From Eledone cirrhosa (lineage: Eukaryota), in the NCBI GenBank assembly GCA_964016885.1, contig OZ024740.1, positions 202,988,001 through 203,052,000 on the forward strand: 64,000 bases of DNA. Reading direction: 5' to 3'. Below are positions 2,125 to 60,210 of this stretch, one piece after another. How positions within the stretch are numbered: the stretch's first letter is position 1; each line of letters starts with the position of its first letter. Both the position numbers and the translations under genes were made by a program. The notes under the pieces are model-generated. The model was given only the letters and a program-made list of their open reading frames with translations, was not told where the DNA came from and searched no databases.

Positions 2125-2283
2125 TTGTGCTCTGTACCCTTTCCTAAGGGGTTAATATATCGAGCTTCTTCGCATTTGGTAATAAGCTGGTATTATACCC
2201 AATATACTCATCTCATATAAATATATATATATATATTATTCAAAATGTTAACAAATGAAAAATATTCTCATAATCAAAATATA

Positions 2284-2346
2284 TATTTTATTATACATAT
2301 TTCAAAGGTACAATGGTGTTTAAGTACGTTTTCATCAGACAAAATA
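2284..2346 (-). ncRNA. Minimal type I hammerhead ribozyme (mirror of 2458-2520)
   Basis: Reverse complement of the + strand motif. Confidence 0.75.
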
Positions 2347-2457
2347 TATGATTTGATAAGTGACATACCGCTACGGTCTTGATTATTCAATTCCAGTACT
2401 GCCAATACTGGAATTGAATAATCAAGACCGTAGCGGTATGTCACTTATCAAATCATA

Positions 2458-2520
2458 TATTTTGTCTGATGAAAACGTACTTAAACACCATTGTACCTTT
2501 GAAATATGTATAATAAAATA
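2458..2520 (+). ncRNA. Minimal type I hammerhead ribozyme, PLE type
   Basis: tattttgt CTGATGA aaacgtac..gtaccttt GAAA tatgta TA ataaaata: stems I and II pair; stem III is 1 bp plus a near-palindromic loop. Confidence 0.75.
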
Positions 2521-2789
2521 TATATTTTGATTATGATAATATTTTTCATTTGTTAACATTTTGAATAATATTAAAAACTCCAGGAAAATCCACTGTTGAG
2601 TGCTTCTAATCTATTGTAATATTGTATTCGTTGAGTAATTAACGAACCATACTTATCTTTGGGTATATATATACAATCATTTATTATGGCTATTGGTGAA
2701 ACTCTAGAGTTTCACCTGGGCACTCACAGGATCACCAGTCTTATGTAATGATCCACCAAACTCTTCTCCTCGCCATCACACAAAACTCT

Positions 2790-15699: not shown

Positions 15700-17965
<2,266 letters not shown>

Positions 17966-18486: not shown

Positions 18487-18524
<38 letters not shown>

Positions 18525-18655
18525 GTGAGGTTTTTTTTACAAAATGAAAAATAACCGAGGTGTCCTACACGAGTGAAATTATAAAGAACAAGAGATGAAA
18601 TCGAAAATGCAACTGGAGTCTTATTTTTTAAAAAAATATATATATTTATTTGGTT

Positions 18656-18693
18656 CCTTTACCGGTTTCGCAGTTCTTCTGCTTTTCAAAGGG
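18656..18693 (-). ncRNA. Minimal hammerhead, U3-A8 core variant (3' pLTR copy)
   Basis: ccct TTGAAAA gcag aagaa ctgc GAAA ccgg TA aagg; one stem I mismatch. Confidence 0.65.
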
Positions 18694-19835
18694 TGAGTTG
18701 AGATGGAGGGTCTGTGGTTTTTCTCACATCTGGTTGGTCTCTGAATGTTACTTGTTTTATATGGAAAAAGTGGCTCGAAATGCCAGGTTTTTCGAGAAGT
18801 AATTTGATTGGTTTGTCAATAATTATAATAAATTTCGCGCCAGTTCGCGTTACAATAGTTCTTCAAATAAGAGGGGGGGTTGTCACAGGTTGTTTTTTCA
18901 TATATGAGTGTTTGAATTTCTTTTTACTTGAAAAAGGGGGCTCACGAAGGCTTTTTGGGGTTGGTTATAAATGAAATTATGGCTGTCACGTGAACAAGTT
19001 TTCATTAAATTTCCGTGCCCTTATTTGGAAATCCATTCTGTAGCCTTTTTAGAGAATTTTATGATAAGTGAAAGATAATGGTCAAGAGAAAGGGATGGGA
19101 GAATTGTTCTGGTTCAGTGAATATGGTTAATTCGCTGGGGTGTCAGAATTCAGATTTTCTATTGAATAAAGAAAGTAAAGATATGTATGTTTATTTGTGT
19201 GCTTGTGTGCGTGTGCGTGTGTGTGTGTGTGTTGTGTGTGTGTGTTTGAATTTCTTTACTTAAAAAAAAGGTGGCTCACGAAGGCTTTTTTTTAATAAAC
19301 GTGATTTGATTGGTTATAAATGAAATTTGGCTGTCACGTGAACAAGTTTTCATTACATTTTTGCGCCCTTATTTGGAAATCTATTCTGTAGCCTTTATAG
19401 AGAATGTTATGACAATTGAAAGATAGTGGTCAAGAAAAATGGGATTGGGAGAATTGTTCTGGTTCAGTGAATATGGTTAGTTCGCTGGGGTGTCAGAGTT
19501 CAGATTTTCTATTGAAGTAAAGATATGTATGTTTATTTGTGTGCTTGTGTGCTTGTGTGTGTGTGTGTGTGTATTGGAAGATGATTCTATTAGTAGAAAT
19601 GGGGGAGGGAGTTGTGTGTGTATATGGGTGTTATGTGTGTGTGTGCGAGTATGTTAAGATGGAGAGAATATATATTTTGTGTGTGTGTATATATGTGTGT
19701 AGGAAAGTGGTTCTATTATTAGAAATGGGGGAGGGGAGTTGTGGGTGTGGGGGTTGTTATGTGTGTGTATGGGTGTTATGTGTGTGGGAGTATGGTTAGC
19801 ATGTTAAGATGAAGAGAATATATATATATATATAT

Positions 19836-19870
<35 letters not shown>

Positions 19871-20006
19871 GAAAATGATTCCTTTAGTAGGAATATTTTT
19901 GAGTGAACATATTTTCCTTATTCGTATTTGTTCTGTTGTATTGTCAGTGCAAACGTATGTTAAGGTTTATTTAGTTCGGGTTTTTATTTTCTAAAGTAGA
20001 AGGTGT

Positions 20007-20044
<38 letters not shown>

Positions 20045-20070
20045 ATATTATGGTGTTGACATAATGTATA

Positions 20071-22341
20071 TTAAACCATATTTAATGTTGGTCTATATTT
20101 TTGAATAAACATATTTTCCTTATTTATTCGTATTTGTTCTGTTGTATTGTTAGCGCAAAGGTAAAATGGGAAGACTTGGATTTTGGGTGTCTTATTACTT
20201 GCGCAAATGTCTAGATATGCACTTAGTGGTATCTGTCTCGTGGTTGGATCTCGTAATTGTTGGCGATGAACTGTCATTCTGTTTCTGAGTGTGAGTTTAG
20301 TTTGTCCTATATAATCTTCATTGCATCTTTTACATTTAATGGCATAAATTAGATTTTTTGATGAGCAAGTGAAGTGATTTTTTACAGTAAAATTTTGTCC
20401 TGATTTAAATGTATACGTGTTGCCTTCAATGAGGTGAGTGCAGGTTCCATAATTAGAGCGACCACATTTTTTTATACTTGGTTGTGGGTTTGTGGTAGGT
20501 AATTTGGCATTGGTGAGTAATGTTTTCAGTGATTTTGGTTGTCTTTTGCTTTTGATTATTTTGTGTGTTTCAAGGGCTTTTTTCATTCTTGGGTTTTGTT
20601 TTAGTAGTGGGATGTTCTTGTGAATAGTGTTGTAAGCTTCCGCATTTCTTGGGTTGTGTGTTGAGATATATGATAGAATATTGGACGTACCTTGAATTTG
20701 TTTCTGTTTCTGTAATTCATCAATGCCTATTGCTTTAGCCCTTTCTATTCCATTATTTATTAGTAATAGTGGGTACTCTCTCTCAAGTAGAATTTCCTTT
20801 AATTCTTGAAGTCTTTTATTTCGCGTTTCATAATTGGAGACAATTGTGCAAATTCTTCTTGCTAGGTTAAAAGGAATGTTCGTCTTCGTGTGCTTTGGAT
20901 GGTTGGAGGTGAATAGCAGATATTGTTTGGAATCTGTTGGTTTGTAGTGTATGTCAGTTTCGATATTTGTGTCTTTTTTTAAGATTAAGATGTCCAGAAA
21001 TGGGAGTTGATCTTGGCTGTATTCCATTGTGAATTGGATGTGGTTATTGATACCGTTTATTAAGTTTTTGAAATCCTTCAGTTGGTCGAGTGTGTGGGAC
21101 CAAAGAATGAGGCAATCATCCAAGTAGCGTTTCCAATTCTCTGATAAATATTTGTGGAAGTTCAATCCGTATTTTGATTTGGACTGTTCATATATCTGGA
21201 CTTCTAAGTATGCCATGACTAAGTTGGCATAAGTTGGAGCGGCTTTTGTACCCATCGCAGTCCCCGATATTTGCTTGAAAGTATTGCCATCGAAATCAAA
21301 AAAGTTGTTCTGTAAGATGAATTTTAATCCCTCGGTGATGAAGCTTTTTTCTATTCTGTCAGGTATCTCATTGGGATATTTCTCTAGCCAGAATCCTATT
21401 GCTTCTAGTCCGTATTGGTGTGGGATCGTTGTGTAGAGATTCACTACATCGAAAGACACAATAATAGTGTTGTTGTTGAAATGTTTGGGGAGGTGGTTTA
21501 AGAGGTCCAGATCGTCTCTTACAAGGCTTGGTATGTGTTTCAGTATTGGTTTCAGTAGTATGTCTATAAAGTTGCTCAGTCTGTGTGTTTCACATTGTGG
21601 ACCCGCTACAATTGGTCTTAATTTAAGGTATGTGGGGTATTGTGTGTTCACGCAGGCTGAGGTTGATTGTTTACAGGCATCGTTGATTATTTTACACTTG
21701 TGGATCTTCGGAAGTCCGTAAAGGTTGCTGGTTTTGTATTCAAAATTTGTTAAATAATCGCGTTCCTTTTTAGTTAGGTCTTCCTGGTATTGATAAATCA
21801 GTGTGTTTAATTTGGTCATTATTTTTGATTGCTGGTAGTTTTTTACTCTTTCATAGTAATTAGTATTTTGTAAGAGAGAGAACATAGAATTTTTATATTT
21901 TTCAGCCTCCATAATGACAACAGTACTTCCCTTGTCCGCTTCCTTAATTATAATGTCCGTATTGTTTTTTAGTTCATGGATAATCTCCCATTCCCTTCGA
22001 CTCGTGTTGGGTTTGGGTTTAGGTTGCGGTAGTTCATGGTATGGGAAGGTAGCTATGTGGTCACAAAATTTGTCCAGAACTCTGTTTCTACCTTTTGTTG
22101 GGTTGTAGCTGCTTTTATTCCGTACAATTGATTCGTCGTTATTCTCCTTGTCAAAGAATTCCTCTGTGAGACGTAATTTACTACAGAAGTGTGATATATC
22201 GTCATTTATCTCATTGGGGTTAGAGTATTGTGGTGTTGGTGTGAATTTCAGTCCTTTGGAGAGAATTTTTACTTGTTGGGCTGAGAGGTTTGTATTTGAA
22301 AGGTTAATTATTTTCGGTTTTTCAAAATCGGTTTGTGCCAC
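20071..22341 (-). CDS. Penelope-like reverse transcriptase with C-terminal GIY-YIG endonuclease
   Basis: LYGLPKIHK, LRPIVAG, SFDVVNLYTTIP, KQISGTAMGT, WKRYLDD, LPFLDI, NLIYAIKCKRC..YIGQT..LRNRM..H; the N-terminus probably continues in frameshifted ORF 22308-22817. Confidence 0.93.
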   Translation of the reverse strand: MAQTDFEKPKIINLSNTNLSAQQVKILSKGLKFTPTPQYSNPNEINDDISHFCSKLRLTEEFFDKENNDESIVRNKSSYNPTKGRNRVLDKFCDHIATFPYHELPQPKPKPNTSRREWEIIHELKNNTDIIIKEADKGSTVVIMEAEKYKNSMFSLLQNTNYYERVKNYQQSKIMTKLNTLIYQYQEDLTKKERDYLTNFEYKTSNLYGLPKIHKCKIINDACKQSTSACVNTQYPTYLKLRPIVAGPQCETHRLSNFIDILLKPILKHIPSLVRDDLDLLNHLPKHFNNNTIIVSFDVVNLYTTIPHQYGLEAIGFWLEKYPNEIPDRIEKSFITEGLKFILQNNFFDFDGNTFKQISGTAMGTKAAPTYANLVMAYLEVQIYEQSKSKYGLNFHKYLSENWKRYLDDCLILWSHTLDQLKDFKNLINGINNHIQFTMEYSQDQLPFLDILILKKDTNIETDIHYKPTDSKQYLLFTSNHPKHTKTNIPFNLARRICTIVSNYETRNKRLQELKEILLEREYPLLLINNGIERAKAIGIDELQKQKQIQGTSNILSYISTHNPRNAEAYNTIHKNIPLLKQNPRMKKALETHKIIKSKRQPKSLKTLLTNAKLPTTNPQPSIKKCGRSNYGTCTHLIEGNTYTFKSGQNFTVKNHFTCSSKNLIYAIKCKRCNEDYIGQTKLTLRNRMTVHRQQLRDPTTRQIPLSAYLDICASNKTPKIQVFPFYLCANNTTEQIRINKENMFIQKYRPTLNMV

Positions 22342-23117
22342 CGGGTGTCGTGTGTCCTGTAACCTTGGTCTAAAAAATGATTTTTCTGGAATGTTTTTTC
22401 AATGGTATTATTATATCTAATGGTATTTCGCCTGTTGTTGTGTGGTCTTGTATAGAAGTTTCGGACGTATTGAGGTTCGGTTTGTTGATAGTCCGAGTTG
22501 TAGATTTTGTTCCTTTGTGTGGGTTGGGATCTACGGTTTTGGAACAGGCTCTGTGTGGGCAGGGGTCTACGGTTTTGGAATAGGTTTTGTGTGGGTTGTG
22601 ATCTGCGGATCAGGTCCTGCCTTGTGTTCGGGGATCTTTGGTTTTTGTTAGTAGGGTTATAGTTTTGTCTATGGTTTCTGGGATTATCGTTATAGTTTTG
22701 CTGGGGGTATGTTGGACGTTTTGTTACTTTTTTTGTTATTTGTTGTGCATGTGGTGTGTGAGTTTTAGTTTGTTTTAAAAATGGGTTACCTGTATGTTGT
22801 TCATTTTTGAAGTCCATTTCGTAGTTGTTGAACCAGGTGGCGTTTTTTTCCCATCGCTGGAGGGATGTTAGTTCTTCATCCTCACAGTTTTCTTTCTAAA
22901 GTTTTATGGGTCTTTTGTAGAGTAGGCCTTCAGAGTGCTCTTATTTGAAGAACTATTGTAACGCGAACTGGCGCGAAATTTATTATAATTATTGACAAAC
23001 CAATCAAATTACTTCTCGAAAAACCTGGCATTTCGAGCCACTTTTTCCATATAAAACAAGTAATATTCAGAGACCAACCAGATGTGAGAAAAACCACAGA
23101 CCCTCCATCTCAATTCA

Positions 23118-23155
23118 CCTTTTGAAAAGCAGAAGAACTGCGAAACCGGTAAAGG
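23118..23155 (+). ncRNA. Minimal hammerhead, U3-A8 core variant (inverted pLTR copy)
   Basis: cctt TTGAAAA gcag aagaa ctgc GAAA ccgg TA aagg; ACCGGT palindrome in stem III. Confidence 0.72.
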
Positions 23156-23224
23156 AACCAAATAAATATATATATTTTTTTAAAAAATAAGACTCCAGTT
23201 GCATTTTCGATTTCATCTCTTGTT

Positions 23225-23324
<100 letters not shown>

Positions 23325-30581: not shown

Positions 30582-33500
30582 TAAATTTCTTGATTAGCCA
30601 CAAGGGCACAAAAGAAGGGGACAAATACAAATGGGAAGTTTACATACAGGTATATGAAAATAAAACTATTAATAAAATAACAAATAACAATTGATATCCC
30701 CAATAGGGGGGGGGGTACACAGGGGTTGTACACACCCCGAAAAAATGTACAACCCTCATCTCCAGGAGCACCAAGAGTGAGTACTCCCTTCCTCTCTTCC
30801 TCTTTTTCCGCAACCTACAGGCTTATATAGAGAGAAGGCCCAACCACTTGGTCCATCTTTGCCACATTCACCCACCTTTTATAAAATTTGCTGGGGTACA
30901 GCACCTCTCTCTCTCCATCCTGATTCTTCTTCCAAAATGATATTTGAGAAAACGAATCAGTTATTCGCCGGAGAGAAAAGTGTCTGACCTCAGCCCTTTT
31001 AACCTCGTCCACCGTATAACCTCTTTCACCATAGCCATAACACATAGGAAAACCGCCTCTCCTTCGTTTTTGAAGGAGAGTGGCGGTTTGATCATGACAA
31101 TGGACTCGGTGGTCAACTGGATTGGTCCCACCCGCGACAAAAGTCGTTCTACATAGCCCCACAGGACGATAACGCCCGGGCAGTGTACAAAAGCGTGCGC
31201 GACGGTTTCCTCGTTGCGCACGCATCTCGGACAGAATTTTTCGAAGGGTCCCTGCTCGGGCGCCCGTGTCTGTAGAGCTTGTCTGGAACTGGTAGAGCTC
31301 GTCAGTAGCACTGCCAGGCCAGGGACTTTTGGAAGTTGTCCATCGGTCCGGAGCTAAAGGTCCTACCGAACAGACTGGCCAGTTCGTTCTCCTCTACGCC
31401 TAGAGCTTCTCCGAGCGCGTCGTCGCACTTGCTACGGACCAACTCTCTATAGAATGACGAAGTGGAGTCTCCACTGATCGCCGGGTCCGTTTGCCAGAGG
31501 GCTGTGAGCGCCTGAGCACATTCGATGTGCCAGTCGCCCATTTTACTCGGTCTTTGCTTGACCCAGGACTGCAGCTCGGTCAGCGAGACGAGTCGTGGGA
31601 ATGCTCGCCTCAGGAACGGGGCCCACACCGGTTGTCCGGTGAGGAATACGTGGAGATGCCGCAGCCTGAGCGCGTGTTTGCGCATCGTCAGCCACGGCAT
31701 CTCCAGCCCTCCGTTAGAAGGGTGTTGGCAGCAGATGGATCTTCTCACCAAAGGAGCCCGTTTCTTCCAAAAGAATTGGAAGAGCGCGCGCTTCATTTTG
31801 GTGAGCGTTTTGGCTGGACAAGGCACGACGGTCAAGCGGTAGTAGATTACGAACGCTATAAAAGTGTTCGCCACCTCCACTCGACCTTTCAAGGATAGTT
31901 TGCACTCAGCTCACTTCTGGGTGAGTGCAAACACCTTGGCCGTCCACTCGTTCCAGTTCTTCTCCACCTGGAGGTCCGTACCAAACCAGACCCCGAGCAG
32001 CTTTACCGGTCCTTCCGTCCAGCCTCCGATGACGCCATCGGAAGGCATCGGTTTGCCTCTCCACGTTCCGAGTTGCAAACCGACGGATTTGTCCCGGTTC
32101 AGCTTCGCTCCTGTGAACCTTTCGTATTCCTTCAGTAAGGTGCCGAGCTCCCCGATTTGCGAGGTGCTCGACACCATTACTGTCACGTCGTCGACTTTTC
32201 GCAGTCCCGGTTCCAAAGGGATGCCCTGCAATAGCTCCAACTTCCGCAGTAGTGGCTCGAGAGTCATTACGTACAGAAGAGAGGAGAGAGGGCATCCCTG
32301 TCGGATGGATCGCGTGATATGGGACGGCTCCGAGAGGTAGCCGTTCACCTTGACCCTTGAGCAGATGTTGCTGCTGTGCATTGCAGCAATCCAGCCCCTG
32401 AACACAGGTCCGAAGCCTGCCGCCTTGAGCACCGCATCCAGGTACCGATGGTCAACCCTATCAGTCTTAGACTGATCCAAGTTGATCAGGGCCCCACCGA
32501 AGCCGGGTTTACACCCTACCCTCTCTATGATGTATCGCATGAGGTGGAAGTTGTCGTGTATGGACCTGGTCGGGATTGCGCATGTCTGCGCTTCTGTCAC
32601 CAGGTTTTCGACGAGAAACGCCAGCCTCTTTGCCAACACCTTGGCCAAAATCTGTAACTCTGTGTTTAGCAGAGTTATGGGCCGGAAGTTGCCTATGTCA
32701 TCCCCCTTATTCTCGTCCTTCCTGACTAAGGTGACTACGCCCTTGGTCACAGAACTGGGAATTCTCCCGTTCTGCTGCCAGTTGCAGTAGGCCGCTTCCA
32801 GGAGACCGGAGAACAAGTCCGGCATTGCTACGTAAAATTCGTATGGTAAACCGTCGAGACCTGGAGATTTGCGTTTGCCGCATTGGCTCAGTGCGTCCCC
32901 TATCTCAGCGGCCGAAATCGGTCTTTCGCAGAACTTCGCCTCGCTGTCCGAGAGTCGCGGCAGGCCGTCAAGGTATGGACCGAAATCCATAGCCCCCCCC
33001 CCCCCCCCCCCGGCGCGGCGCCCTGCCCGAACAGTTGAGCAAAGTGCCGCTGAAAGGCCGCGCACATTTGCTTCGGCTCACGTATCATGCATCCATCTTG
33101 GTTCTTCAAAGACCGAATCGTGGACTTGTTGCCACTTTTCGCCTCCGTCACCCGGGCCCAGCGAACAGCTTTGGCTCCCTCGTTTCCCAGAGCACGTATT
33201 TTGCTGCTGACAACGCAGCCTTCATGCTTTGCGTCGAAGAACTGGTCCAAGGCCGTTCTCGTCGCTAGCTACGTTGCCACTCCTACGTGCCTCTTCTACT
33301 TTATTTACCAGTTCATTTTCGGTCTTATTTCTATCTAACACTAATTCTTTACTAAAACCTATCGAGTCTAATCTAACTGCCCTCTTGAGAGAGTACCACC
33401 ATCTGTTGTTGACAATGGCCCCCGTCAAGTGCTGCTTAACTAAAGTGCTAATCCGTCTACTGTAGGCTTTGCATGTCGGTAACGACGAGTTCAGCTTCCA

Positions 33501-35192: not shown

Positions 35193-35480
35193 TCAAAATA
35201 GTCTATTTCTAACTATAATATACTTTTTTCTTATATTCTTTCCTTAAATTTTCTTACACCCTAATATTCATATTAACCTCTCTCTCTTCTTCCCTTAAAA
35301 AATAACTCTAATAATTATTTAAATTTACCTAGCGTCTAAATATAACGATCTTTTTCAACTTTACGTTATCCTTATTAACATATTCATCCTAAGATTTGAA
35401 TGTCTTTCACTATTCAAACAGAACTTAAAACGATAAATTCTTGTTTTTGGGATATGTCACTATCTATAAAACAACTTTTG

Positions 35481-35542
35481 TATTTTATCTGATGAGAGCG
35501 TACCAAACATTTTGGTATCCTTGAAATATATATAATAAAATA
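35481..35542 (+). ncRNA. Minimal type I hammerhead at the end of an AT-rich pLTR-like region (about 34130-35570)
   Basis: tattttat CTGATGA gagcgtaccaaa-cat-tttggtatcctt GAAA tatata TA ataaaata; 35569-35599 is an inverted copy of its 5' half. Confidence 0.85.
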
Positions 35543-35593
35543 AATATGGTTTTATAAAGATAGTTTCCAATGTTTGGTACGCTCTCATCAGAT

Positions 35594-35696
<103 letters not shown>

Positions 35697-44679: not shown

Positions 44680-44832
44680 CACATACATACATACATACAT
44701 ACATACATACATACATACATTTATATATATATACATATGATGTGAAACGTATTTCAGTAGCAATAAACATACAACAAACAAAAATCAACAGCATGCGGCT
44801 ATATATATATATATCTATATATATATATATAT

Positions 44833-45032
44833 ATTATTATTATGTAATAAACAACATAAGGCAATTATTCCATTTACCAGTGGTTTCTTAAAAGCAAAAG
44901 GTTTTGCTTTCAATCCTCAGAATGAAAAATCCGCATTTTTCATTCTGAGGATTGAAAGCAAAACCTTTTGCTTTTAAGAAACCACTGGTAAATGGAATAA
45001 TTGCCTTATGTTGTTTATTACATAATAATAAT
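44833..45032. repeat. Palindrome, 98-bp arms, 4-nt loop, carrying mirror hammerheads (44868-44927 -, 44938-44997 +)
   Basis: tttcatt CTGAGGA ttgaaagcaaaa-cc-ttttgcttttaa GAAA ccactgg TA aatggaa and its reverse complement. Confidence 0.92.
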
Positions 45033-45099
45033 AATTAAGCTCTGTTGCTTACATAGAGCACTCTTTTTTCCTGGACTTTTCCGATGGAATTACTTCATT

Positions 45100-45207
<108 letters not shown>

Positions 45208-45309
45208 TATATATATATATATGTAAAGTTATATTTAAAATTGTTGGGTTACAACTAGTAAATATTTATAACTGATATAAAAGCACTCGACAAATATTTG
45301 GAGTATATT

Positions 45310-45694
45310 TACAATATTAAATAAATGGAAAACTATATTTATAAAACCATATTTATTTCATTATATATATTTCGGGGATATCATATTAACAATATGCTAT
45401 GCCTTCATCAGACAAAATACAATATAAACAGTTTTATAGATAAATATATTCGACATACCGTAATAAACATCAACTTCATTTGAAGAGGTTTACGCTAGCA
45501 GACTGCTAGCGTAAACCTCTTCAAATGAAGTTGATGTTTATTACGGTATGTCGAATATATTTATCTATAAAACTGTTTATATTGTATTTTGTCTGATGAA
45601 GGCATAGCATATTGTTAATATGATATCCCCGAAATATATATAATGAAATAAATATGGTTTTATAAATATAGTTTTCCATTTATTTAATATTGTA
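45310..45694. repeat. Palindrome, 192-bp arms around a single base (45502), carrying mirror hammerheads (45354-45419 -, 45585-45650 +)
   Basis: tattttgt CTGATGA aggcatagcatatt-gtt-aatatgatatcccc GAAA tatata TA atgaaata; same family as 35481. Confidence 0.92.
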
Positions 45695-45845
45695 TATATA
45701 TATATATATATTTATATATGTAGGAGGTGAGTTTTATTGTAGTACAATAAAGCAATGCAGATATCGGATAAGAAGCACTCTACAGTTTGTAGGACTGGAG
45801 TATACATAATATATAAGATCAAAAGATGGTTAAATGAGTTCCATG

Positions 45846-45916
45846 TATTTTATTATGCGCATTTCAAAAACAAATATCATCATGAAATAACATTTGTGTT
45901 TTCATCAGATAAAATA
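45846..45916 (-). ncRNA. Minimal type I hammerhead
   Basis: tattttat CTGATGA aaacacaaat..atttgttttt GAAA tgcgca TA ataaaata. Confidence 0.85.
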
Positions 45917-46756
45917 GGAGGACATGATATGAAGGTTAAAAAACACTTGTGGATAGTGCAGTTTTAAATCAACATATGAAAAGTAGTTTTAGATTGATGT
46001 GTGATATTTGGAAAAAAATTTGAGGGGGTGGGGGGTGGAAAGGATGAAAAAGAGGAGGAGATGAGAGTAAAAAGTGGAGGGGGAGGAGTATAGTGAGGAA
46101 GGATGAGATAGGAGGAGAGATGGGTGATAGAGAGAGCGAGAGATAGCTTTTATAACTGAGAAAAATATATTGTTTTACATAAAGAGGTTGAAAAAACCGT
46201 TGGAAGATAATGTATAAATTAAAAGAATTTGAAAATTACCGAAGAGAAAAATAATGTAAAGTTAAGGTTTGTATATTGAAGGGTTTAATAATATGTGCGA
46301 TGAAAAGAAATTGTTAATATGTATTAAGAATAATATTTAAGGGTTTAATAATATGTGCGATGGAAAGAAAATGTTAATATGTATTAAGAATAATATTTAA
46401 GGGTTTAATAATATGTGCGATGGAAAGAAAATGTTGATATGCATTATTAAAAAAACAGAAGTAATGTAAGTAAGGATATATTGTGAGATGAGCATGAATA
46501 AGTTAGATGAAAGGGAGAAAAAAATAATGAATAGAGGATGAATAATCTAACGTCAAAAAATGTTTATGTTTACGAAGGATTTTTTCAAGGTGATATGAAG
46601 TAAGAATATGGTGTATTGTGTAATAATTGTTTCTATGTTAGGCACACTGAGAAAAGGTACAGATTAGGGGTTAGAAATTAGGAGTGATGTAGAGTATAAT
46701 AAATATAATAAATAACTTTGAAATAAGGTAGAAAGATGGGTATATTTTTAAAGAAG

Positions 46757-46788
<32 letters not shown>

Positions 46789-47529
46789 CCTTTGAGAAAA
46801 GGATTCTGAATTGATAAAGTTTATCATATTAGCTGTATACTTTATGGAAAATTCTGTGGAATTTATGCAAGCAGATAGAAAACAAGTCAGTGCGTCTATT
46901 TATTATAGAATCTAAATTAGAAATAATGGTAAATTTTTCATTTAGACAGAGATTGCAAGTCTTGGATAGAGAACTGTTCAAGTTTGAAGAAGCAGAGGAA
47001 ACCTTTTTCCAAGAGATGTTATATTTAATATTTTTGTCTTTCAAGGACCATATTATTATTCTTAATACATATTAACATTTTCTTTCCATCGCACATATTA
47101 TTAAACCCTTAAATATTATTCTTAATACATATTAACAATTTCTTTTCATCGCACATATTATTAAACCCTTCAATATACAAACCTTAACTTTACATTATTT
47201 TTCTCTTCGTTAATTTTCAAATTCTTTTAATTTATACATTATCTTCCAACGGTTTTTTCAACCTCTCTATGTAAAACAATATATTTTTCTCAGTTATAAA
47301 ATCTATCTATCTCTCTCTCTATCACCCATCTCTCCTCCTATCTCATCCTTCCTCACTATACTCCTCCCCCTCCACTTTTTACTCTCATCTCCTCCTCTTT
47401 TTCATCCTTTCCACCCCCCACCCCCTCAAATTTTTTTCCAAATATCACACATCAATCTAAAACTACTTTTCATATGTTGATTTAAAACTGCACTATCCAC
47501 AAGTGTTTTTTAACCTTCATATCATGTCC

Positions 47530-47600
47530 TATTTTATCTGATGAAAACACAAATGTTATTGCATGATGATATTTGTTTTTGAAATGCGCATAATAAAATA
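47530..47600 (+). ncRNA. Minimal type I hammerhead (inverted-arm copy)
   Basis: Same as 45846-45916 with one loop substitution; TGCGCA palindrome in loop III. Confidence 0.85.
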
Positions 47601-47665
47601 CATGGAACTCATTTAACCATCTTTTGATCTTATATATTATATATTTATATATATATATATATACA

Positions 47666-47766
<101 letters not shown>

Positions 47767-47861
47767 CCCACATGCTGTTGATTTTTGTTTGTTGTATGTA
47801 TATATATATACATATATACATACAACAAACAAAAATCAACAGCATGTGGGTATATATATAT

Positions 47862-47894
<33 letters not shown>

Positions 47895-47896
47895 CA

Positions 47897-58773: not shown

Positions 58774-58987
58774 AGCAAGGTTGCTTGGATGCGTCCATAG
58801 GCGGTATGCCAGTTGAGCATTCTATGCTTCTTCGGAGCAGAATATAATAATATGGAAAACGATGCATCACTGATTCTTCGTTTTCTATATTATATATATA
58901 TATATAACAAACGAATTGTGGTAAGGAACCAGATGGACCATAACGTACCAGAGTACTCAATACTTAGGGTAGTAGAGTGGGTAATAG

Positions 58988-59114
58988 GAGAAAGTATGAC
59001 CCCGACGGCAGAGCTCAAACCGTTTCGACGGTTTATTTCTGGACTATTTCTGACTTTAGTCCAGAAATAGCCGTCGAAACGGCTTGAGCTCTGCCGTCGG
59101 GGTCATACTTTCTC
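58988..59114. repeat. Imperfect palindrome made of two hammerhead 3' halves
   Basis: atagccgtc GAAA cggc-ttgagctct-gccg TC ggggtca and its inverse; no CTGANGA. Confidence 0.8.
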
Positions 59115-60210
59115 ATATATATATATATGTCGTTGTTAGAAGCATGTGAATAAAATATGAGTGTAGATGTTAAAAATACATATGTCTCTTTTTTGTACTT
59201 GCAACATTCATTTCTTTTAATATGTCGATATTAGAGCTGATCGGCCTTTGGCCATGATAAAATAGAAATAACGATTGAAAAGTAATGTTTCAAACTGTCG
59301 GAGAACAGAATCTGTCAATTTACATAATTTTAGAGTTTTATAGGGTTAGCTAATTTAATTATATATTATAATAAATTGTACACTAAACCGTTCTTCATCT
59401 TTATCAATCTTTATCAATCTACGGAGATAAGTAAATAAGGCGTCCTTGCATGTTTACATATATAAAATGTGTGAGAGTTTACATAGAACAGGCTTGACAA
59501 ACTCTAAAATCTCAAACGGGGAGTACCATGAAAAGAATTGAGCAAAATGGGGAGATTTTACATAATGAAAGCTATACTCATTTTCACAAGAGAAAACATC
59601 TCATACCCACCCCAAAGTGGGTGGGAGATCTCCCCGTTGGACAGGAAGAGTTGATAGGTCTGATACACGTTTCTCGCAGCTTCGGTGAAATCGTGTACTA
59701 TTTGTATACAATATATTGTTTTCAATATACCCCCAGCTGCTTATTCACAATATGATATATAATTTAATTAACTATCACGTTAGGAGCTACAATTATGAAA
59801 ATTAGTCGATCAGTTCTCTAGTTCTACCATATTTCATATTATATAATGTCTTTAGTCAGGTTAAAGATCTAGATAGCATCTGACGGGGATTCCAACAATG
59901 ACCAAAACTCATGTCAAGCTTTTCATCGTTTTTAGTCTTTGGAATATACATAAGACACGTATGAATGTTTCATTCTCGATGAGTCATCCACCTTAATGAA
60001 TTTCATGCGAATTTTCCTTTTTGAATTCAATTATATTCCAATTCCAATAGCGTTGGTTCCTGGGGGTTTAACCCTGCGATGGACTGGCGTCCTGTCCAAA
60101 GGGTATCGTGTACTCTCATTGCCTCACACCATGAAACCGGGATAAGCACCGGCCTAACGAACCTTCTGGCTTAAGACACACTTTAGACTAGAATCAGATG
60201 CTATTAAATC

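Follow-up and report, generated by a model that had tools for sequence, protein, structure and literature searches.

A two-hammerhead palindrome in Eledone cirrhosa as a probable twin-primed insertion of a Hydra-clade Penelope-like element

By what route does a short, coding-free palindrome with a hammerhead motif in each arm arise within a (TA)n tract, and is it copied as a unit or built anew at each insertion? The question is raised by positions 2233-2571 of a 64,000-nucleotide stretch of Eledone cirrhosa DNA (the window) from a 3.0-Gb genome. An earlier, sequence-only reading had proposed an extremely 5′-truncated Penelope-like element (PLE) insertion made by fold-back or template switching of the nascent cDNA. 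Recomputed arm coordinates bear out the geometry it gave: two 166-bp arms (2233-2398 and 2406-2571) with their only mismatch at 2267/2537 enclose a 7-nt loop (2399-2405). The description as coding-free agrees with the finding of no ATG-started frame longer than 45 codons within 2233-2665, and the left arm does stop in (TA)n. The insert sits within (TA)n on both flanks, and a check for target-site duplication places both of its ends in (TA)n. The features, in window coordinates, are:

2215..2232, no strand: (TA)n target, left side (from the sequence)
2233..2398, minus: left arm, an inverted pLTR front end with outer end S1 (a fixed end class) and without tail
2281..2349, minus: type I minimal hammerhead motif, predicted cut after 2292 (descriptor scan)
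2398..2398, plus: +1, the base of the inner-end pile-up and putative capped transcription start (end counts)
2398..2571, plus: right arm, the pLTR front end from +1 to S1 (family comparison)
2399..2405, plus: 7-nt loop, corresponding to +2 through +8 in the right-hand copy, with 1 nt of microhomology at the junction
2455..2523, plus: type I minimal hammerhead motif, predicted cut after 2512 (descriptor scan)
2572..2664, plus: tail between S1 and S2, the first part of the parent 5′UTR (common to family copies)
2577..2605, plus: hairpin A motif, built of a 4-bp stem, a 2-nt bulge and an upper stem, shortly 3′ of S1
2664..2673, no strand: (TA)n target, right side (from the sequence)
44833..45100, plus: second Hydra-type family, a palindrome with right-hand tail and hairpin A at 45039
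45225..45700, minus: third, young Hydra family, a palindrome centred on its own +1 with the tail on the left and hairpin A at 45304 (minus)
58905..59118, minus: further Hydra-type family, with the palindrome centre within the hammerhead, a left-hand tail and hairpin A at 58978 (minus)

The recurrence claimed for this design holds in part. The same arrangement is found at 44833 and 45304, whereas the palindrome at 58988 is centred inside the ribozyme, so that each of its arms contains only the hammerhead 3′ half.

A descriptor scan located hammerhead cores at 2466 (plus) and 2338 (minus), both reading outward, which agrees with the one outward ribozyme per arm noted earlier and identifies a type I motif in each. 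The motif comprises an 11-bp stem I, a stem II of 7 pairs and a short, self-complementary stem III. Its conserved core, long stem II and palindromic stem III match the minimal type I hammerhead that PMC4209133 describes for PLEs and proposes to work as a dimer. In the family of the 2233 palindrome (family 1), the G10.1-C11.1 pair is absent, and stem II opens with A-U pairs and contains an internal mismatch. The ribozyme identity of both motifs rests on the descriptor match, and they are treated here as putative. Unconstrained folding of a single motif did not yield the hammerhead fold, and no hammerhead appeared among the 150 of 214 Rfam matches listed, which are microsatellite-driven miRNA noise and count for neither side. 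Among 163 arm 5′ ends in family 1, no peak occurs at the predicted hammerhead cut.

Non-LTR retrozymes, as described in bioRxiv 10.64898/2026.07.22.740005 and PMC4209133, are likewise non-coding, PLE-derived and equipped with a type I minimal hammerhead. They form head-to-tail tandem arrays on one strand, whereas the ribozymes of the palindrome lie on opposite strands, so no transcript carries two in sense. Identity as a non-LTR retrozyme was rejected on this arrangement, head-to-tail sense hammerhead units being absent. Elsewhere in the genome (G000:C2:169702714-169703470), five head-to-tail repeats with 183-bp spacing include the tail end of the 44833 family and possibly form a retrozyme-like array.

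The tail to the right of the palindrome links it to a larger element. A query of right arm plus tail returned 3210 first-look genome candidates, 40 of which were scored. The tail, previously called unique, is shared at least in part by all 29 other loci from this search, reaches query position 267 or more in 27 of them and continues into a parent 5′UTR and ATG. Exact patterns matched the genome 495 times for the ribozyme core and 623 times for the arm end. Past the palindrome centre, 212 exact matches extend upstream into a common body of more than 3 kb, which carries RT and endonuclease frames in the ribozyme sense. In L172 and L173, the tail runs on for ~50-60 nt to an ATG and is thus the start of the parent 5′UTR.

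The pLTR-linked body leads to RT and endonuclease (EN) frames in L103, and a 750-aa frame is present in the related L178. RWR and DKT occur in L188 and L270, DKT in L178 and L187, and RWR with EKT in L172. Overall, the parent ORFs are characterized by RW[RK], a CxCX5C linker and, at the C terminus, a GIY-YIG-type endonuclease without CCHH; an RWK motif, the change of DKG to DKT, the CxCX5C linker and the absence of CCHH are given as Hydra-clade features in PMC8557442. Judged by these motifs, the parent is a Hydra-clade C-terminal EN+ PLE; a Pfam search of the L103 parent frames returned no match. The family is therefore linked to PLE ORFs, the association on which the sequence-only reading had made its case depend, and continuity into a Hydra-type parent 5′UTR confirms a very short PLE insertion. 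Like the published Hydra clade, these elements contain a hammerhead in the pLTR and insert into (TA)n. They differ from that description in their length (>3 kb) and ~2 kb 3′UTR, in a tail of ~93 nt in family 1 versus 30-40, in a hammerhead distinct from the Hydra-1_Obim row, and in the paired hairpins and +1 pile-up described below (PMC8557442). The young family at 45304 retains an intact 737-aa ORF. Classification of the 44833 family as non-autonomous was abandoned: five long loci were without ORF, but the ORF of the family was found later.

Another PLE in the window, at about 18580-23231, had been presented as the same design around a full ORF. The ORF does encode a PLE RT and GIY-YIG domain, but it belongs to another clade (DKG motif) and is not the parent of the 2233 palindrome. 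With the window ORF 20071-22398 as tblastn query against 170 loci, only 4 scattered matches were obtained, none of them in the 20 long body-bearing loci, and the ORF was rejected as parent. This element (18520-23231; RT, GIY-YIG and DKG, split ORF 20071-22895 on the minus strand) shows the same architecture: its inverted arm stops in (TA)n at 23231, and a tail of roughly 60 nt lies at the opposite end. Its hammerhead-like core reads TTGAAAA instead of CTGANGA, possibly a compensated U3-A8 variant, and the Hydra hairpin motif is absent from it.

Family-wide comparison of copy ends was based on two samples. Family 1 was represented by 107 loci including 2233, 86 from the first 100 of the 495 core matches and 21 from arm-end matches, after 4 + 9 duplicates had been dropped; all lie on contigs C1 and C2, taken in position order. 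The young family was represented by 56 loci drawn from among the first 100 in a set of 3040 matches (14 overlapping dropped, 2 without match), partly picked as close pairs, which inflates pair frequency and leaves end classes unaffected. BLAST ends can overshoot through microhomology; hence a 10-nt margin was applied.

Outer ends fall at two fixed points, S1 (2571) and S2 (~2664). Among 46 head-to-head pairs of family 1, 39 combine S1 with S2, one is S1+S1, none is S2+S2, and six have one decayed end. Under independence, mixed pairs are predicted at 37% among the 40 fully classed pairs (p ~4e-16; 4e-11 at 50%). The young family follows the same rule in 31 of 33 pairs, as do all six long inverted copies checked. 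Such strict pairing implies that both ends of one insertion were made together, using different sites, and it supports the earlier suggestion that the asymmetry records integration. Pairing is not obligatory: solo copies make up 57 of the 107 family 1 loci (37 S1, 12 S2, 8 other). Raw reads of other samples also contain family copies ending in (AT)n at 2571. An inverted, 5′-truncated pLTR placed head to head with a one-sided tail matches the published shape of EN+ PLE inverted insertions. A few tail-to-tail pairs (L152, L126, L293) are probably separate insertions into one (TA)n tract. In the window at 35430-35600, a hammerhead at 35489 (plus) precedes a brief stretch that repeats its 5′ half in inverted orientation, with (TA)n coming next; this layout resembles tail to tail and falls outside the twin-priming model presented below.

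The inner ends define a third fixed point. Of the 163 arm 5′ ends in family 1, 62 lie in a 13-nt window around 2398, a density of 4.8 per nt compared with 0.9 or less elsewhere. Young-family inner ends cluster at the homologous position, within an Inr-like TCACT motif; the 44833 family gave no sharp +1 pile-up in 25 loci. Genome-wide, the young family has 59 A/T-flanked ends at +1 versus 3 at internal position +22. A TCACT motif of this kind is also present in rotifer pLTRs (PMC3846280), and the Drosophila Penelope transcript starts within the upstream pLTR (PMC2377424).

Copies starting at +1 after six A/T bases, with templated C excluded, frequently have a G at -1 where the element has C: 25 of the 59 ends, and 47 among the first 100 of 169, or 43 of 88 without 12 body mutants, both sets having been counted by hand. 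Background G frequency is 9-12%, and none of the three ends at the internal control position has a G. RTs copy the RNA cap as an extra G, and the untemplated G at inner ends is likely such a copied cap. We infer a capped start at +1 and, for the short copies, an origin by run-off on uncut sense RNA. With ends piled up at one base and bearing a cap-like G, truncation is not random. The same G occurs on solo S1-ended copies (L113, L135, L206, L274), which indicates that S1 behaves as a start on RNA. A first count on the sampled loci (2 of 22 in the young family, no excess) was discarded, having kept duplicates and misclassed body variants. At body junctions, 12 rows (4 G, 7 T, 1 A) lend no support to a cap G retained as a trace of strand transfer. 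By eye, a downstream promoter element could be made out at +28 to +32 in two families; it was dropped, the majority allele of family 1 lacking it.

Relative arm lengths bear on how the two halves were joined. Among the 39 S1+S2 pairs of family 1, the tail-less arm extends inward past the tail arm by more than 10 nt in 20, four of them without overlap; the tail arm is longer in 7, and the arms are equal in 12. In 31 young-family pairs, the tail-less arm is longer in 8 (3 non-overlapping), the tail arm in 8, and 15 are equal. Where arms do not overlap, neither contains the sequence of the other, so one folded cDNA is insufficient unless a later central deletion occurred. Long palindromes are prone to asymmetric central deletion, which could mimic unequal arms, and the older family has the higher share of these (27 of 39 versus 16 of 31). 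Junctions overlap by BLAST in 27 of 39 pairs, overshoot included. Snap-back does happen, with 12-44 nt inverted snippets at the 5′ end of 7 of 57 solo copies, and is a minor route. Fold-back of nascent cDNA, as first proposed, is thus not supported as the main route, given the 20 of 39 and 8 of 31 pairs in which the tail-less arm is longer. The 2233 locus alone, where the tail arm is longer, is compatible with fold-back or twin priming. Three young-family tail-only arms (L221, L271, L277) all stop at 240-241, possibly an RT pause or collision point.

Both arms appear to derive from one source. Across 38 family 1 pairs, the arms share non-consensus bases at 2.6% of sites versus 0.75% when shuffled (maximum 1.4%), and differ at 4.1% versus 7.8% in shuffled pairs. 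In 28 young-family pairs, the shared fraction is 0.48% versus 0.03%. Very few shared variants are private to one locus (2 of 116 in family 1, 3 of 22 in the young family), which speaks against subsequent conversion between the arms. A young-family copy, L267:731-4670, is hyper-edited, with 165 A>G among ~220 sense-strand substitutions and only 6 T>C. Its two pLTR arms carry the identical 10 A>G changes, with one mismatch over 1170 overlapping columns. These shared edits, likely ADAR editing of the RNA before copying, point to one sense molecule and against an antisense model. Because the tail arm is longer there, L267 demonstrates a one-molecule origin, not twin priming.

The parent 5′UTR offers a structural counterpart to the two outer ends. 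In the parent, +1 is followed by the hammerhead, S1, hairpin A, S2, hairpin B and the ATG. The bulged hairpin (RCTCY ... GAGY) occurs twice, at a distance of 5-8 nt past S1 and of 7-9 nt past S2. Hairpin B sits within a long stem that shows two-sided changes between families. The pattern drawn from three window families also matched just past the arm end in two others, giving hairpin A after S1 in 5 window families and 8 pattern matches in the window in total. An isolated motif match at 17932 is assigned to none of the families. Among 20 parent regions anchored on the RW motif, 7 have both hairpins, 5 one match and 7 none, most of these truncated. Two pattern matches occur in 8 of the 20, one of them overlapping, against 0.0005 matches per region in shuffles. 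In an alignment of 17 hairpins, all 94 cells pair and two-sided changes occur at 3 of 6 pairs, a score that leans to structure, the alignment having been picked by a pattern demanding the stem ends.

A forward test for RCTCY after S2, in two families with unseen parents, returned 176 and 71 matches, mostly at one spacing. The predicted GCTCC was found at fixed spacing in both; in one of them, 9 of 15 loci had hairpin B complete. Both families have Hydra-type ORFs, 31-46% identical to those of the young family. In the 44833 family, the strict hairpin B pattern was found in none of 15 loci; in 11 of the 15 (by eye), its closing half lies ~70 nt away, a long-loop form. Just 3′ of the tail, L348, L352 and L357 of that family contain an insert of ~60 nt in hairpin B with its own stem, the closing motif being kept. 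The 2233 palindrome retains hairpin A, whereas hairpin B lies beyond S2 in the parent and is absent from the insert.

This loss bears on whether the palindrome is itself mobile. Family 1 presents 41 distinct end combinations in 46 pairs, with 3 combinations seen 2-3 times, and arm lengths grade continuously up to whole ORFs. The exact 2233 junction recurs at L111 with the tail on the opposite arm, and the same exchange of arm roles at an identical junction links L081 with L111, L259 with L262, and L248 with L253 and L264. Shared loop positions, earlier expected to mark a mobile unit, are therefore signs of an RNA end. A non-autonomous element with two ribozymes, self-contained and multiplied as a whole, the propagating class once suggested, would be consistent with the recurring junctions and with the near-equal spacing of ~13 of 23 young-family close pairs (by eye). 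It is nonetheless scarcely probable given the 41 combinations, the swapped roles, the continuous size range, the missing hairpin B and the rarity of S1+S1 (1 of 46 and 1 of 33 pairs). Varied ends, exchanged roles, continuous sizes and loss of hairpin B together suggest that palindromes are rebuilt at each insertion, and a product with hairpin A but without hairpin B is likely a dead end.

The palindrome is probably a short, head-to-head Hydra-clade PLE insertion in (TA)n, twin-primed on one capped, uncut sense RNA. The proposed steps all derive from genomic copies. The element protein, probably as a dimer, would bind both 5′UTR hairpins and cut both (TA)n strands; S1 would then serve as the priming site of one DNA end and S2 as that of the other, both sites lying 5-9 nt 5′ of their respective hairpins. 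With starts only ~175 and ~270 nt from the RNA 5′ end, both cDNAs would in most cases reach the cap and run off, or end before it. Where the two overlap, the S2 cDNA would displace the S1 cDNA, and the two 3′ ends would join by short microhomology, followed by fill-in. The proposal covers short head-to-head copies; full-length ones may come from read-through RNA, a circle or strand transfer. By a slight balance of the evidence, we further favor a duplicated 5′UTR hairpin, one per RT subunit, directing each start to a different target strand; twin priming would then be the normal first step of integration, and palindromes its ‘double strong-stop’ products. If so, twin priming with one hairpin per subunit would explain the PLE tail and the inverted pLTR in one mechanism.

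Several other routes must be weighed against this. An S2-primed cDNA could run to the RNA 5′ end and fold back, the endonuclease resolving the second strand at S1 and central deletions following later; endonuclease resolution is suggested as the tail origin in PMC8557442. This fits the 2233 locus and those 19 of 39 pairs in which the tail arm equals or exceeds the other in length, accounts for variants shared between arms, and agrees with the snippets at 7 of 57 solo 5′ ends and the excess of unequal arms in the older family. It remains unlikely, requiring a secondary deletion in half of the pairs, and is opposed by the three separate young-family loci whose tail-only arms end at 240-241, by the cap-like G on solo S1 copies, by the separate hairpin at similar spacing for each of S1 and S2, and by the use of both tail-bounding sites as RT starts in vitro (PMC11167929). 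Twin priming on two different RNAs, held by a protein dimer or a hammerhead dimer, would remove the need for strand displacement; minimal hammerheads have been proposed as dimers (PMC4209133), and transcripts of one active locus would share subfamily variants. The private hyper-edited pattern common to both L267 arms makes two RNAs improbable, and two whole templates give no reason for strict S1+S2 pairing.

Self-priming on an antisense transcript is the reading of head-to-head junction palindromes proposed in PMC3846280. Here it is highly improbable: the extra G marks the sense +1, the L267 changes are A>G on the sense strand (165 of ~220, with 6 T>C), and sense RNA is the template in vitro (PMC11167929). 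The chance of an assembly or amplification artefact is smaller still. None of the compared reads or contigs spans the whole palindrome, but two fixed biological ends, an inter-arm mismatch, the same rule in dozens of loci of several families and the raw-read ends at 2571 from other samples all stand against it. Read starts at 2392 and 2412 were set aside as library cuts, being AATT sites of RAD libraries.

The twin-priming reading can be compared with two known systems. In LINE-1 twin priming, a single RNA is the template for primers from both target strands, and the two cDNAs meet in head-to-head orientation; the second primer anneals at variable sites, yielding an inversion without duplication. 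Unlike LINE-1, both starts are fixed here and the cDNAs usually overlap, producing a palindrome. Poseidon PAc in vitro cuts and extends both strands, uses uncut RNA, is modelled as a dimer, and starts RT at two internal sites bounding the tail, with hammerhead cleavage dispensable (PMC11167929). It has a single AC-rich stem-loop, in contrast to the hairpin per start seen here, showed no start-site difference between strands and no strand-by-site pairing, and the main text of PMC11167929 contains no analysis of inverted products.

The palindrome shape itself is already published, and the locus is an ordinary Hydra PLE stub, repeat debris. The 2233 copy represents the minimal end of the size range of published EN+ PLE inverted insertions, which share the head-to-head inverted pLTR and the tail at one end only (PMC3846280, PMC8557442, PMC2377424). 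Published explanations invoke antisense self-priming or endonuclease resolution, whereas the present data point to a sense, capped template with two RT starts (PMC3846280, PMC8557442). The origin of PLE tandem and inverted structures and of the tail is named as an open question in the same two sources. A literature search, with subscription papers outside its scope, found no report of twin priming, cap run-off or paired hairpins for PLEs; the RNA fold in Fig. S2C of PMC11167929 may bear on the hairpins. The copies supply exact, testable coordinates for the RNA start, two RT starts and two hairpins, the latter kept between families whose proteins are only ~31-46% identical, and the young family with its intact 737-aa ORF offers an in vitro system. 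PLEs are the sister group of telomerase (PMC8557442), and an RNA element that fixes the template start at a set distance would bear on template finding by telomerase-like RTs.

Other repeats in the window were recorded alongside. A non-LTR-type RT frame (Pfam RVT_1) at 31911-33077 on the minus strand is unrelated to the palindrome. A palindrome with 88-bp arms at 47721-47896, centred on a short (TA) run, is related to ~44770-44800, and no hammerhead was found there. Finally, a longer inverted pair of a further family occupies 45750-47620, with arms of 477 nt plus ends and a 658-nt spacer; both arms contain a hammerhead, and hairpin A lies at 45801 (minus).
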